From: Fimbriimonadales bacterium
GTDB taxonomy: Bacteria > Armatimonadota > Fimbriimonadia > Fimbriimonadales > JABRVX01
Assembly: GCA_045862955.1 (NCBI GenBank)
Contig: BTVI01000008.1
Location: 1-64,000, forward strand
DNA length: 64,000 bases
Reading direction: 5' to 3'
In this document: piece by piece, positions 18,001 to 24,000 of the stretch
Numbering within the stretch: position 1 is the first letter of the stretch
Layout of the letters: each line of letters starts with the position of its first letter
Made by a program: the position numbers

Positions 18001-21000
18001 GCGGTCACCGACCCAGAAACCGTCACCTACGTCGTCGGCCGCATCCTGAACTACACCAACGTGTGTTGGGTGCGATGCAAGTTCTGCGCCTTCTACCGTC
18101 CGCCCAAGCACGACGAAGGCTACCTGCTCTCGGACGAAGAGATAATGCAGAAAGTGGAAGAGTTGGTGCGCCTGGGAGGCGTGGAGTTGCTCTTCCAGGG
18201 CGGGCTCAATCCCTCGCTGAAGATCGATTACTTCGAACGCATCTTCCGCCTCATCAAGCACCATTACCCTAGCGTCATCCTTCACGCGCTCTCACCCGCC
18301 GAAGTGATGTACATCGCGCACATCTCGCGCCTGAGCCTGCGGGACTGCCTGGTCCGCCTGAAAGAAGCTGGCCTGCACTCCATACCGGGCGCGGGCGGCG
18401 AGATATTGGTAGACCGCGTGCGAGCGCAAATTGCGCCGTACAAGGACACTACCGAGGAGTGGTTGGAGTGCATGAGGACCGCGGCCGAGGTGGGGCTGCG
18501 CAGCACCGCGAGCATGATGTTCGGCCACGTGGAGACCGTGGAAGACCGGGTAGAGCACCTCGTGCGCATCCGCGTGCTGCAAGATCAGTGCGAGCCGTTC
18601 CGCGCGTTCATCGCGTGGAACTTTCAACCCGAAGACACGGCCCTGCCGATCCCGAAGAAGGCGTCCGGCTACGACTACCTGCGAACGGTTGCGGTGGCTC
18701 GCCTGATGTTGGACAACGTGCCCAACCTCCAGTGCTCCATCCTGACCCAGGGGCCGAAGATCGCCCAGCTCTCGCTAGGCTACGGCGTGAACGACTTCGG
18801 GTCGGTGATGATCGAGGAGAACGTCGTGTCGGCAGCAGGCAGCAAGTTCATCCTAAACGCCGAGGAGATCGAGCGGCTGATCCGGGACGCGGGCTATGAG
18901 CCGCGTCGCCGGAACACTCGCTATGAGCCGGTCTGAGCTGCCTGCGCCGCTCGATTGGCTGCCCGCATTAGGCGCGACTTGCGCCGAGCGGCCTGGTTCT
19001 TGTGGATGATGCCGCGCTCGGCCGCCTTGTCCAGGTTCTTAACCGCCTGGAGCACTCGCGCGTTCGCATCCTCGGCACGCTTTTCCACGGCCAAACGGGC
19101 CTTCTTGACGTAGGTTTTCAGCGCGGAGCGGGTGCTTCGGTTCCTAAGGTGCCGCTTCGCATTTCGACGCAGGTCCTTCTTCATGGACCGGATGTTCGGC
19201 ATAGATGCAATCCTCCGAGTTCAGAGCGCGGCCATTATGGCACACGCACTCTCTACTTCTTCGCGTATTTTCTCTTGGACTTGTCGGCGCCTTGCTGCAC
19301 CTTCTTCGGGTCATAGTGCCAGACCGGCGAGCCTGCTCGCTGGTAGAAGCAGTGGTAACCGGAAAGGATGGACGCGATCATGTTGCGGGTAACCCGCCGC
19401 ACCACGTTCACCTCGGTGACGATGGTGATGAAGTCTGCGCCTTTGTTGTAGCGCGACATCACCTCGGCCAGAATCTCGAAGGTGGACAGCGTGTCCGCCC
19501 GTTCCTGCAATTCCCGAAGCTCCTCCATTCGCTGGGAGCTGATGAAGCAGAGTGGATCGGGCTCCTCCATCCAGCGGAACAGCAGCCGGTTGGGGTCCCC
19601 GGTCTTGTGCAAGGTGAAGACCGCACCCGATTCGATCTCCTGCTCCAGATACCACGGGAACAGCCCGAACATCAGGCGCAGCTCGGTGTTGACCCACACA
19701 GGGAGCTTGCGGCCCTTCGGGTCTTCCAGGATGATCTCCTGTAGCTTCGGCTCGGCAGGCAGCCAGCCGTTCGGAATCTGGGCGAGCGGGAAGGTGCCGA
19801 GCTCCTTGTGGTGAGCCTTCACAACGCATCGCACCTCGTCCGCCAGGTGCTTGTGAACGGGGCCTACCTCGTCGTCCAAGACATCTTGGGCAAGCGCGTG
19901 CCCCAGTTCCTTGCGGAGCGATGACGAGAAAGCCTCCGGATCCAGTTCGAGGTCGATCTCTACGCCGTCGTCGTCGTAGAACTCGTACTTCTCGTACCGG
20001 AGAATCTCCGGAACTTCGTGCACGTAGGGTGGCTCGGTGCCGGGCTTGCGGAAGCGAACGCCACCGACCCACAGCACCTCGGGGCGGCTGCGGAGTGCCT
20101 CGACGACCGTGTTGAGGTCGTCGGCATAGGTGCGCGAGCCAGGCTCTACCCCGTACATCTCTGCCAAGAGATCGGAGGCCAGCGTAGCGTCGTCGCTCGA
20201 AAGAATCTTGGCGACCATCTGGTCCAGCTCCTCCGGCTTGACTTCGAGCGGTGTCGCATCCTCGATCTCCACGGTCGGTTCGAGCTTCTTCAGCAGTCGG
20301 GCGGCTGCGGTCAGCCACTTCTTTGCGTCAGCCGCTGCGTGCCACTTTCCGTCCGGGCCGTAGACGAAGTCGTCGGAGGAATACACGGTATCGAAGACCC
20401 GTACAGGGTCATAGCGCGGTGGAACGTACGGATCGGGCGAACGCAATGCCCTGGAGGCGAAGTAGCCGACCACGCGCGCATCTACGGGCTCGTTCACAGT
20501 TCGTAGGAATGTCAGAGGCGCCTCGGGCTGCTCCCAATCCACCGCAGCGGCTGCCTCGCGGTAAGGCTCCACGTCCGACGGCTTCAGATCGTTGTAGAAC
20601 AGGTCGTCGTCATCGTTTTCGGACTGCTCGACGTAGAGCCACGATCGGAGGCCAACGTGATCACCCTTGCAGAAGAAAAAGTCGTCCCCCTTCGAGACTA
20701 GCCTGCGCAGATAGGTCTCGAAGTACTCCCGGGGCCGGCCCAGCATGTTCGCGCACTGTACGGCGAGCAGCTTCAGGGTCATGGGAGCTCCGAAGCTCTG
20801 AACCAGCCCGACGACTGCCGTTGCCACAGCCACGCGTTCGTGCGCGGCTGCGATGTTGGCCGCCCATCGCCGGTCGTGGTTGACGAACCGGTCGGGGTTC
20901 GTGGCCATCAGGGTGTAGATCTCGTTGGTGTCCAGGCCGGAGCCGGCCAGGTGTTCGGCGATGTCGGTAAGGCGCGCGATGCCGTCGAGCTCGCCGATGG

Positions 21001-24000
21001 CGGTGAGCACGAGTCGGACCGCGTAGTCGCGTCCGAGCTCCTCCTGCTTAGTCGCAGTAGCCGTTGATGTAGACAAAGATTCGTAGCCTCCGGAAGCTGC
21101 GCTGTGGGTGAGCGATGATTATGGCACAAAGCGAGTTCGCCGCGGGTCGGCTCGGGTCCACGTGCAGAGCCTGAGAAAAATACGGTAAAAAGTGCTCGCG
21201 GGCCTAAAGGACTTCCTCTAACCCGCCGAACATATCAAACGGATCGAGTTCACCTTCCTTCCTTGGGGGTGGCAGGCTTTGCTCTCCTTTCACTGCCGCC
21301 CTCTTTTTTTGCCTCGACCCGTTGCCCAGTCACTTTTGCAGGCAGACCAAGACGTCACCCGTCTTGGCCCTCTGCGTAGTCCGAACGAGGTTAGGCCGTG
21401 GACAGGCCACGCCCCCATGCGTTATCATGAGCGAGTGTTGACGCAGGGAGTGAGTGGAACCGAGCGCGATCGGGATGCCCGAGCCAGCGTGGGCGGGCTG
21501 TCCTGGTATCGGCAGGAGACTGCCCCGGCTGCATGCCACGCACCGGCTCGCCCAGGAGCCGCTGAACGCTGATGCACTGCTCGACACCCGATGGCCCCGA
21601 GCCGGCCATAAAGCTAGACAATACGACCGGTTCGGCGGACGCGCAAGCCGATTGCAGGCGGGCTGGAGCAATCCAACGAGTGCTACGTATCGTTAGGCTT
21701 CCGATGCACCCGATCCGCCGCCTATACGACTGGACGATCCGCTGGGCAGGGACGCGCCACGCGCCCTACGCGCTGTTTGCCGTGGCGTTTGCCGAGAGCT
21801 CGGTGTTCCCGGTTCCGCCGGATGCGCTGCTCATTCCCATGGTGCTCAGCCAGCCCAAGGCGTGGCTCCGAATCGCCGCCATCTGCACCATAGGATCGGT
21901 GTGCGGAGCACTGCTTGGCTACTGCATCGGATGGGCGTTCTACGAGTCCGTCGGTCGCCAGATCGTGGATGCCTACAACTTGCACGAACCGATGAAGGCC
22001 ATTGGCGACAGCTACTCGCGGCACGCGTTCCCGACGGTGTTGACGGCGGCCTTCACCCCGATCCCCTACAAAGTGATTACCATCGGCGCTGGGCTATACA
22101 ACGTGTCTCTTGCCACGGTCATCATCGCCTCGCTCCTGGGCAGGGCCTGCAGGTTCTTCTTAGTCGCCGGCCTGCTCCGGATTTTCGGCGAGCGCATCGG
22201 GACGTTGGTAGAGAAGTACTTCGACGCACTGGCGCTCGCCTTCGCCGCCCTGCTGATCGGCGGCTTCCTCGCCATCAAGTACCTCTTCTAGCGCGGCTCC
22301 CTGCTACTCCAAGTCCAGCCGTGAGAGGCTCGCAACGTCCACCGAGGCGAATCTTAGTCCGAAGACCTGACCAAACGCAGCTTCGGCCTTGACGCTGGCA
22401 TCCCCTAAGCTAACCCCGCCGCCCATCAGCAGACCAAGCGACGTAACGCCCAAACCCGATATGCCACACGGAATGATGGACTCGAACGGGCTCAGATCGT
22501 TGCTCACGTTCAGAGCGAAGCCATGGAGCGAAACCCACTTCGATACCTTGATGCCGATAGCACACACCTTCTCGCTGCCGACCCATACCCCGGTGTGGGG
22601 CGGCCTGCGCTCGCCCTCGATGCCATGTTCACGTAGAACGAGAATGATCGCCTCCTCCACGTCCCGTAGGAAGCGATGGACGTCGCGCCCGCGCTCGCGG
22701 AGGTCGAAGATGGGATAGCCGACTAGCTGTCCCGGCCCGTGGTAGGTCACGTCGCCTCCTCGGTCCGTCTCCACCACCTCGATGCCCCGCCTAGCGTACT
22801 CCTCGCGCGGGTAGAGCAGGTTCTCGGGATGAAAGCCGCGTCCGAGGGTGATGACCGGATCGTGTTCGAGGAGCAGCAGCACGTCGGGAATCGAGCCGGC
22901 GACCCGGCGCGCATGCAGGTCGCGCTGCAGCGCCCATGCATCTCTGTACCCCATCCGCCCGAGACGGCAAACCCACCCTTCTCGCATCGCTTCAGGATAC
23001 CTGCGGTCCAGCCCCAGCCTGTCATCCCGAGGGAGCGGCGGTACGACCTCTCGCCTACCAGCCCCTGTCGCATAAGACCGAGGGATCGCTCCGACGGGCG
23101 CGGAGGCCGTGGAACGCTCCTTGGCCACCTAGCCGAGTTTACAGAAGTCTGTACACAGAGCTAGGGCTCCAGCCAGCTCCACTCCTTGCCCTCCAGACCA
23201 GGCCAGATGTGCTCGTAGGTGTCCACCGGCGGCAGATAGGAACCCGTTATCCCAGCAGAACGAGACATCTCGTGTGCGCGCTCGCTGATCAGGCTCCCGG
23301 TGCCCGCCACATCGAACAGGTCGCTCCCGTCCCACGTCTCGCCATCCCTCCACATCCGCGATGTGGAGGGTAGAGTAGCGACAGGAACCTACCATCCCTC
23401 CACATCCGCGATGTGGAGGGATTGCGGATAGCCGGATGTGGAGGGATAGCAGCGGCAGCGGCTCGTGCCAACTTCGTCCCAGGTATCAACGCACACCCGT
23501 GTCGTAAGCGTCGGCACTACCATACCCTCCGCTATACCCTCCACATCGCGGATGTGGAGGGATAGAAGAACGCCCCCCAGTGCCGTAAGCGTCGGCACTA
23601 CCATACCCTCCACCATACCCTCCACATCGCGGATGTGGAGGGATAGAAGAAGAACGCCCCCCAGTGTCGTAAGCGTCGGCACTACCATACCCTCCACCAT
23701 ACCCTCCACATCGCGGATGTGGAGGGATGGCGGCAGCGTGTGCGGTCACGCCTGGCGGAGCGCTGCGAGATACCCGGGCATCGCGTCCATCACTCCTCGT
23801 ACCTCATCCCAAAGTGACCGAGCGAATAGCGCGGCGCTCGACCACACATAATGCTCCGGGCACATGACTAGCCCAGCTCGCACAGGGTTCTGGTGGATAT
23901 AGGCGGCTTTCTGCCGAAACACCTCGTCGGAAGTGACAGGAAAGCTCCGAAAGCTGCGCTCCCAGAACGTTCTGCCCCCTAGTCCGGCCTGCTCCCCGAG

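Follow-up and report, generated by a model that had tools for sequence, protein, structure and literature searches.

A contig from a Fimbriimonadales bacterium carries an unnamed gene for a protein built of winged helices and a plant-type B3 barrel. What might such a protein do, and is it peculiar to the Armatimonadota? These questions were followed from a window of 64,000 nucleotides, the whole stretch of DNA analysed (contig BTVI01000008.1, positions 1 to 64,000), into the rest of the phylum and beyond.

The gene and the domains of its product

The gene, whose product consists of four winged helices (wH), a B3 domain and a further winged helix and is called the B3-wH protein below, is separated by 50 bp from rpsT, which follows it downstream in the same orientation (Table 1). 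The survey's finding had described the open reading frame, its 607 residues, a net charge of −29 and the absence of any Pfam or NCBIfam family over cut-off, all of which were borne out. Below the cut-off, Pfam offered nec1 (E 0.014), present in one of 77 family members, and DUF4777 (E 0.024); neither was retained. PADLOC gave no match for the protein or two orthologues, an Atlas search with the whole protein returned unnamed Armatimonadota clusters only, and the gene's own genome holds one locus. Near-identical contigs from RNA libraries of two studies cover positions 19194-19592, 19260-19721, 19853-20003 and 20892-21094; such contigs cannot show transcription. No description of the family was found in the literature searched, a mention in Aravind and Iyer 2012 (PMC3272235) being possible.

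Table 1. Coordinates of the B3-wH gene, its neighbour and its encoded domains (window positions)
Feature	Position	Strand	Remarks
Gene for the 607-aa wH4-B3-wH protein	19253..21076	−	TTG start; stop at 19253-19255
rpsT (ribosomal protein S20)	18921..19202	−	downstream neighbour; derived context
wH1, residues 10-75	20852..21049	−	HARE-HTH-type repeat; conserved basic positions 35, 54, 69, 70 and W71; Z 7.8 to winged-helix/LOTUS chains
wH2, residues 76-150	20627..20851	−	closest solved relative: RNA polymerase delta N-domain
wH3, residues 184-248	20333..20527	−	most diverged repeat; hhalign 88.5% to wH2, 68.9% to wH4
wH4, residues 277-346	20039..20248	−	first domain of the core common to Chloroflexota and sporadic forms
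Acidic linker, residues 347-411	19844..20038	−	family mean net charge −13.4; ordered in model (pLDDT 90-97)
B3 pseudobarrel, residues 412-505	19562..19843	−	family mean net charge −4.2; fold match
wH5, residues 531-590	19307..19486	−	most conserved domain; basic residues 560, 561, 564, 565 at third-helix start, then A568-S569
Basic tail, residues 591-607	19256..19306	−	family mean net charge +6.1

A new structure model (pLDDT 93.8) supports the earlier description of about five winged helices plus a B3 domain and no nuclease domain. That description had left the later winged helices unmatched. Profile comparison now shows wH1 to wH4 as repeats (hhalign 93.8% for wH1-wH2, 92.3% for wH1-wH4 and 91.4% for wH2-wH4), with wH5 more distant (best 37%). 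The latter matches the C-terminal winged helix of Anaerolineae relatives at 96.6%. The model, Pfam and NCBIfam revealed no catalytic domain, and the domains that could be recognised all have folds that bind nucleic acids. wH5 and the tail carry the most positive charge and are the most conserved (conservation 0.58; other domains 0.35-0.47). The protein is net acidic in all 77 rows of the family alignment (−6 to −111), in which B3 and wH2-wH4 hold few conserved basic residues.

Both fold matches reported before, B3 at residues 412-508 and the delta N-domain at 76-148, were reproduced. The B3 region forms the seven-stranded pseudobarrel with two helices of the B3/EcoRII-N fold. Its closest structural matches were the plant factors NGA1 and TEM1 (Z 10.2; for NGA1 rmsd 2.7 over 95 aligned residues), followed by LlaJI.R1 (8.9) and BfiI/NgoAVII (7.0-7.2), and in an independent model of an Anaerolineae relative the domain reached Z 11.0. 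No B3 or EcoRII-N sequence match was found in Pfam or the PDB with 77 or 80 members searched. Plant B3 factors (RAV/NGA, LAV/FUS3/VAL, ARF and REM/VRN1) share the pseudobarrel over 92-97 residues (Z 8.4-10.2) and have no nuclease attached. However, they are only 12-17% identical, without a sequence match, whereas the domain described here is net acidic, embedded among winged helices and encoded by a bacterial single-copy gene. Its only conserved basic positions are 416 and 491. Because these are so few and the whole protein is net acidic, DNA binding in the canonical B3 manner cannot be taken for granted.

The same fold serves as recognition domain in EcoRII, BfiI, NgoAVII, UbaLAI and LlaJI.R1 (Z 6.5-8.9). 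In the literature found, as far as the consulted parts of PMC12065111 extend, bacterial B3 domains are recognition parts of restriction or anti-phage systems only. Menshen NsnA and restriction enzymes use winged-helix and B3 domains as defence sensor modules, and sporadic relatives of the B3-wH protein are fused to methylases. In contrast, the fixed forms carry no nuclease, ATPase, methylase or partner gene and are vertically inherited and near-universal.

Distribution in Armatimonadota and relatives in Chloroflexota

The gene was found in 193 of 201 Armatimonadota genomes, 192 by phmmer and one of the nine misses by profile. The survey had counted 251 representatives at E<=0.001; our deeper profile gives 742. 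One family (f21; five genomes, 92-95% complete) yielded no match and has rimO and gltX side by side in the four genomes where both were found. This family has lost the gene, which had been called universal.

Among 60 Armatimonadota loci, rimO lies immediately upstream in 29, gltX follows immediately in 32 and at least one of the two adjoins the gene in 40. Downstream rpsT occurs in four of the 60, and in four of the six loci from this bacterium's own taxonomic order. The ancestral order in the phylum is ftsK-rimO-(B3-wH)-gltX. Thus the rimO/gltX and rpsT contexts noted earlier stand, except that the radical-SAM gene encodes RimO, not MiaB. The housekeeping character of the gene also stands, while its link to translation is one of operon position only, and the Chloroflexota contexts differ: there the neighbours are a small winged-helix protein and Lon, or a HEAT protein, FemAB and a Mur ligase.

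Two classes of Chloroflexota have the wH4-B3-wH5 core as a fixed gene as well: Anaerolineae (76 of 81), with forms of about 525 aa, and Chloroflexia (61 of 61), with forms of 546-790 aa, mostly in one copy per genome. Homology of the Armatimonadota core to these Chloroflexota families extends over 305 columns from wH4 through the linker and B3 to wH5 (hhalign 99.8%, E 6e-29). All are named 'hypothetical protein' by their sources, and cultured carriers include Chloroflexus aurantiacus (ABY35552.1) and Herpetosiphon aurantiacus (ABX06303.1). Unlike the 607-residue protein, they begin with a Tudor-like beta domain or a proline-rich linker, have a beta-hairpin insert after B3, lack the basic tail and have different gene neighbours. 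Those Chloroflexia forms that were checked have only a weakly acidic linker (−2 and −3). Since the core also occurs in two Chloroflexota classes and, sporadically, in methylase or ATPase fusions, the gene is not the phylum-specific signature it was taken for. Of this shared core, the survey had seen only a single partial match, in an Anaerolineae methylase. What emerges is a B3 protein, free of any enzyme, that almost all genomes of one phylum and of two classes in another encode in single copy and that still has no name: conserved DNA machinery that annotation has missed.

Candidate functions

We consider it likely that the B3-wH protein is a housekeeping DNA-binding adaptor of some kind. The end formed by B3, wH5 and the basic tail would grip double-stranded DNA, wH5 by its basic third helix, and the ordered acidic linker may shield or compete for this surface and be displaced on binding. 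Of its more specific versions, the one we rank first, though at less than even odds, is a non-catalytic single-copy adaptor in which the N-terminal HARE-HTH repeats would be docking modules that tether the DNA grip of wH5 and tail to RNA polymerase. The protein would then be a lineage-specific transcription-associated factor with a delta-like part. The lack of a catalytic domain among nucleic-acid-binding ones, the peak of conservation and charge in wH5 and tail, the single copy inside a housekeeping operon in 193 of 201 genomes and the core tree and AU test given below are all consistent with such a role. The family that lives without the gene, the net acidity of the protein and the few basic positions in B3 speak against it.

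One link to RNA polymerase comes from wH2. Residues 76-148 align with the delta N-domain at Z 8.5 (rmsd 2.2, 73 aligned), and delta was the only significant match of the 77-row profile in the PDB (E 2.6e-4, 22.9 bits), a better value than the survey's profile had given. PF05066 (curated cut-off 25.9 bits) matches eight of the 77 family members at E<=0.1, the best at 1.1e-4, with the 607-residue query unmatched; the sporadic relative P0154 scores 29.5 bits. However, the winged helix at the N-terminus of Chloroflexota DEDDh-GIY-YIG nucleases reaches 36.5 bits with this stretch of the profile, and numerous unrelated winged helices differ from delta by no more than about 1 Z unit. The likeness is therefore not discriminating: wH2 is delta-like, as the survey had it, in fold and weakly in sequence, but not specially so.

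According to parts of PMC7749165 and PMC11156646, delta attaches to the shelf and jaw of beta-prime through its N-domain, to which an acidic region is tethered. The Bacillota protein (RpoE, 173 aa) shares the fold of wH2, a detectable sequence match and an acidic region, sits on beta-prime between shelf and jaw and co-purifies with the core enzyme, whereas polymerase binding by the B3-wH protein is only predicted. Delta is a small protein with one N-domain and a disordered acidic C-terminus; the protein described here has six folded domains, among them four repeats instead of one plus B3 and wH5, and a basic tail at its end. Its acidic region is internal and, in the model, ordered. In the one Armatimonadota genome searched with PF05066, that of this bacterium, no delta was seen; a single sub-threshold match lies elsewhere in it, a point in favour of such a factor. 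A complex prediction of residues 1-183 with the shelf-jaw part of the same organism's RpoC (584 aa, 26-row alignment) scored 0.00 with the controls unfolded and counts neither way.

The conserved core does not include wH2, the delta-like repeat, which speaks against the polymerase reading. In Anaerolineae, the place of the N-terminal repeats is taken by a five-stranded beta domain resembling the Tudor domains of PcrA/UvrD and RapA, which bind RNA polymerase. The likeness (Atlas 0.82 and 0.75) is below the Atlas lead threshold. By hhalign it reached 26% (E 7e-4, 45 columns), where control segments gave E 0.06-0.5. The domain did not match the RNA-polymerase-interacting domain of Mfd (1.6%), and no Tudor-like domain was among the results of whole-model fold searches.

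The sporadic relatives stand beside helicases rather than transcription genes, which brings in another reading, to our minds rather doubtful, that of a domesticated sensor of DNA structure or lesions recruiting a host helicase, nuclease or translocase. These relatives are fused to N6 or N4 DNA methylases or sacsin ATPases and seem to serve a DEDDh-DinG-RecQ helicase. At 12 loci with DNA available, five have a Pfam-verified DinG-RecQ fusion in the same cluster (four with DEDDh), two more have one by sequence motifs and one, at a contig end, probably does; three are without such a helicase and one is too short to tell. The fusion was not found at E<=1e-150, a strict threshold used without a positive control, in 61 Armatimonadota genomes. 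The best outside match of wH2 heads a nuclease, as described above, and ftsK lies upstream in 16 of the 60 Armatimonadota loci, but usually with rimO in between.

Unlikely, in our view, is a stand-alone DNA reader, that is, a nucleoid-associated or global regulator which might read sequence or base modification through B3 and HARE-HTH, parallel to plant B3 factors. The B3 domain is nearer to plant factors (Z 10.2) than to those of restriction enzymes (7.0-8.9), and the sections consulted of PMC10853773 and PMC11037411 propose HARE-HTH domains as modified-base readers. Three families have a small gene for an N4/N6 methylase placed between ftsK and rimO, yet f21 keeps it in three of four loci although it has no B3-wH gene. 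The net acidity and the scarcity of conserved basic residues in B3 and wH2-wH4 also fit poorly. To our knowledge, sequence-specific regulators are rare inside rimO-gltX operons.

Very unlikely is a factor for ribosome maturation that uses its tandem winged helices to hold rRNA, tRNA or mRNA in the way of SelB or LOTUS proteins. The neighbours rimO, gltX and rpsT would suit it, but the Chloroflexota neighbours would not, B3 and all fusion partners are DNA-directed, and the matches to the C-terminal repeats of SelB (Z 7.6, rmsd 13.1) and to LOTUS/Egalitarian (Z 7.8) are in a range that the search tool calls common. That the protein still is a phage DNA sensor acting in trans is highly improbable: the consulted parts of PMC12065111 present winged-helix and B3 sensors as typical of Menshen NsnA and restriction enzymes, but model, Pfam, NCBIfam and PADLOC revealed neither a catalytic effector nor a methylase within the protein, its neighbours are housekeeping genes with no such constant partner among them, no effector adjoins it at 60 loci, and its single copy, near-universality and fixed operon position contrast with the patchy distribution and variable position seen only in sporadic relatives.

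Exchange between fixed and sporadic forms

The tree of the core places each fixed lineage together with sporadic forms of its own, and the AU test rejects one single sporadic clade (p 1.5e-18; 38 of 76 rows, two long-branch sporadic rows having been dropped and the three fixed groups thinned). Together these results argue for repeated exchange, its direction unrooted, between fixed genes and defence-like clusters. The core may have come from, or may feed, a mobile helicase-linked DNA-sensing module, in at least three separate exchanges. Mobility of the sporadic forms follows from patchiness and context only; plasmid searches with two of them gave no match, a word search with the core of P0140 returned only itself, and a scan of a single genome with P0162 found only its own locus.

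This pattern suggests that a component with which defence systems read DNA has become housekeeping equipment. Returning to the adaptor at RNA polymerase, a further step is distinctly unlikely as a whole: the core would represent an unrecognised class of bacterial transcription or chromosome factors, domesticated three separate times, in Armatimonadota, Anaerolineae and Chloroflexia. Its source would be an undescribed mobile defence module that pairs a B3-wH sensor with a DEDDh-DinG-RecQ helicase, and each lineage would have added a polymerase-docking domain of its own, such as delta-type repeats or a Tudor-type barrel. Plant B3 factors would then have a bacterial counterpart to their origin. 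The sporadic clusters, in turn, point to a helicase-linked system that has yet to be described. The supplements of PMC12065111, PMC10853773 and PMC12839542 may list the sporadic forms.

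Architecture and genomic setting of X

Re-reading the window bore out the ORF of gene X, with the length and net charge (-29) that the survey had given it. Pfam yielded only two sub-threshold matches for X and NCBIfam none. All close relatives (34/34) are unnamed or 'hypothetical' and, where a taxon is stated, belong to Fimbriimonadia or Armatimonadota. In a structure model of X (pLDDT 93.8, pTM 0.68), we found the expected five winged helices (wH1-wH5), an extended linker and a B3 barrel. The barrel matched plant B3 NGA1 (Z 10.2, rmsd 2.7, 95 aligned), LlaJI.R1 (Z 8.9) and BfiI/NgoAVII (Z 7.0-7.2), and residues 76-148 matched the RNA polymerase delta subunit (Z 8.5, rmsd 2.2, 73 aligned), in agreement with the survey's finding of a barrel and a delta-like second winged helix. 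Judged by its predicted fold, X is a B3 superfamily member, without a sequence match. Delta entries were the only significant PDB sequence matches of the 77-row Armatimonadota profile (best E 2.6e-4), and 8 of its 77 members touched HARE-HTH. X was nevertheless rejected as a delta subunit because its architecture differs. Profile comparison showed that wH1-4 are mutually repeats, while wH5 is of a different subtype. No catalytic fold was recognised in fold searches that covered residues 14-147 and 411-508 well, in line with the earlier reading that no nuclease domain is present.

X had been placed among translation genes, and this held across 60 Armatimonadota loci chosen across families, some reaching contig ends. 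On the same strand, rimO lies directly upstream in 29/60 and gltX directly downstream in 32/60; both adjoin X in 21 and either in 40. Upstream ftsK was found in 16/60, and downstream rpsT in 4 loci, all from the taxonomic order to which the window belongs. The ancestral order would most simply be ftsK-rimO-X-gltX, with the rpsT context derived. In families f15, f25 and f21, a small gene resembling N4/N6 methylases (about 300-320 aa) stands upstream of rimO and, wherever ftsK was seen, follows it (L046, L063, L064, L093-L095). Elsewhere in the window, an ORF with a HUH-type motif and its flanking palindromes resemble a REP-associated tyrosine transposase.

Features of the window, of the X model and of fetched loci (L numbers)
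Feature	Location	Strand	Details
Gene X	window 19253-21076	minus	607 aa; TTG start; ends 50 bp before rpsT
wH1-wH5	X residues about 10-75, 76-150, 184-248, 277-346, 531-590
Extended linker	X residues 347-411
B3 barrel	X residues 412-505
MqnC/CofH-type radical SAM gene	window 17833-18936		converges on rpsT; 3' ends overlap 16 bases
Short palindromic repeats, many copies	window 23129-25666		flank the HUH-motif ORF
ORF with HUH-type motif	window 23746-24543	minus	motif read from translations
Two more clusters of short intergenic repeats	window 11467-11925, 16900-17770		visible as recurring peptides within spurious ORFs
Split X gene, complete genome G138	L087:5664-7504		overlapping frames, 292 and 426 aa
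RpoC of the window's genome	L187:142-4857 (contig C3)		1571 aa; shelf-jaw region 584 aa
Chloroflexota two-gene module	L101:603-9073, L269:852-8041, L270, L271:1495-15803, L274, L168:7558-17993, L169:53-9669

Distribution within and beyond Armatimonadota

phmmer detected X in 192/201 Armatimonadota genomes and the profile recovered 1 of the 9 misses, so that the claim of near-universal presence stands at 193/201. It fails for family f21, whose 5 genomes (92-95% complete) gave no profile match; the 3 remaining genomes are fragmented assemblies (310-440 contigs). Since rimO and gltX are neighbours, separated at most by short unrelated ORFs, in the 4 f21 genomes where both were found, a single loss emptied the ancestral slot, and X is thus not indispensable everywhere. 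Two matches occurred in 17 genomes; of 6 fetched, 5 were a single ORF matched twice and 1 was a gene broken into two frames that overlap. The split in G138 may reflect a frameshift or a sequencing error.

The supposed restriction to the phylum did not survive wider searches. The profile gave 742 matches at E<=0.001 among 1.84 billion representatives. Of the 150 matches listed, five are long proteins with the wH4-B3-wH5 core (residues 276-605; E 1e-50 to 1e-77), three of them methylase fusions, including a named Anaerolineae N-6 methylase. In the phylum of that methylase's genome, 57/301 genomes matched the Armatimonadota profile. We fetched 40 matches: 23 form one family, 2 are a shorter B3-wH5 form and the other 15 are DEDDh-GIY-YIG nucleases that have nothing but the wH2-like domain in common with X. 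These nucleases represent a protein conserved in Chloroflexota, about 600 aa long, with a HARE-HTH-like winged helix, a DEDDh exonuclease and a GIY-YIG nuclease (L128-L141, L145).

The 23-member alignment matched the Armatimonadota profile across residues 277-596 (99.8%, E 6e-29). Built in part from genomes inside the searched samples, it was found in 74/301 genomes phylum-wide, 76/81 Anaerolineae genomes (4 as fragments) and 61/61 of a second class (59/59 leaving out the unpublished G581 and G600, counted only in the former figure). We take this class to be Chloroflexia from the source names of its members (Chloroflexus, Roseiflexus, Herpetosiphon, Oscillochloris, Thermomicrobium, Thermobaculum), all 'hypothetical protein'. 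In a separate model of an Anaerolineae protein (pLDDT 91.6), B3 was again recognised (Z 11.0), as was a winged helix. The X family is thus real and spread more widely than first thought.

In 17/17 Anaerolineae loci (L148-L155, L158-L166), a conserved gene for a protein of about 140 aa, which weakly matches a winged helix (DprA_WH, E 0.0012), occurs with the B3-wH gene and is a likely partner. In Chloroflexia, a HEAT-repeat protein, FemAB and a Mur ligase accompany it in 6/6 loci examined (L142-L144, L146, L147, L167).

Sporadic forms and a helicase module

Besides these fixed forms, sporadic extra copies are fused to N6 or N4 methylases or to sacsin-type ATPases (2175-2357 aa), or stand alone. 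We built a tree from 203 B3-wH5 columns and 76 rows (26 Armatimonadota, 19 Anaerolineae, 17 Chloroflexia, 14 sporadic), with groups named beforehand and fixed groups thinned from alignments. Each fixed group formed one clade (98/98, 99/96, 94/97) and grouped in turn with sporadic forms of its own (95/90, 99/96, 100/99), and an AU test (38 rows) rejected a single sporadic clade (p 1.5e-18). At least three exchanges must therefore have taken place between the fixed and the sporadic state; the unrooted tree fits domestication and recruitment alike.

Among 12 sporadic loci with DNA, a DinG-RecQ helicase fusion in the same cluster was Pfam-verified in 5, recognised by motifs in 2 and probable in 1; none was seen in 3, and 1 was too short to tell. 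One locus carries a type I specificity-like ORF and another a methylase cluster. The sporadic clusters appear defence-like; plasmid searches with two sporadic queries gave zero matches. A two-gene module recurs in Chloroflexota, in which a DinG-RecQ double helicase (where whole, 1811-1886 aa with N-terminal wH and DEDDh) adjoins a B3-wH protein, either stand-alone or methylase- or sacsin ATPase-fused. This module looks like an undescribed defence system. No description of it or of the X family was found in the literature searched, which covers subscription titles thinly and excludes supplements.

Possible functions of X

The conserved basic residues sit in wH5 and the tail, which are also the most conserved parts (0.58 for each). 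The acidity of the linker is conserved (mean -13.4), and B3 is mildly acidic. DNA would most likely be gripped by wH5 and the tail with B3 alongside; the ordered acidic linker may shield this grip, and docking would most likely fall to the variable N-terminal modules. The N-terminal module is delta-like in X and Tudor-like in Anaerolineae, which hints, tentatively, at docking on RNA polymerase. PcrA/RapA Tudor domains bind RNA polymerase. In the accessible text of two papers, an acidic region is tethered by the delta N-domain, which contacts the shelf and jaw of beta-prime (PMC7749165, PMC11156646). Several points speak against polymerase docking: a nuclease-fused HARE-HTH outscores delta (36.5 vs 22.9 bits), the Tudor likeness is weak, the linker shows little acidity in Chloroflexia, and the mobile relatives suggest helicases instead. 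Docking on RNA polymerase is still the most favoured reading, though less likely than not.

That X is a repair or chromosome adaptor is rather doubtful, and a stand-alone reader is unlikely; HARE-HTH domains have been proposed as modified-base readers, as far as the accessible text goes (PMC10853773, PMC11037411, PMC12839542). An RNA factor is improbable. B3 and wH domains are already known as defence sensors, according to the part of the source available (PMC12065111). X as a restriction or Menshen component was rejected because it has no effector and its distribution is not patchy, and a defence role is highly improbable.

In 21 Armatimonadota genomes, PF02559 gave one match each, always in Mfd-sized frames (1030-1362 aa), and no stand-alone CarD. 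The RpoC shelf-jaw region spans 469-747 aa among 26 Armatimonadota, reflecting large lineage-specific insertions.
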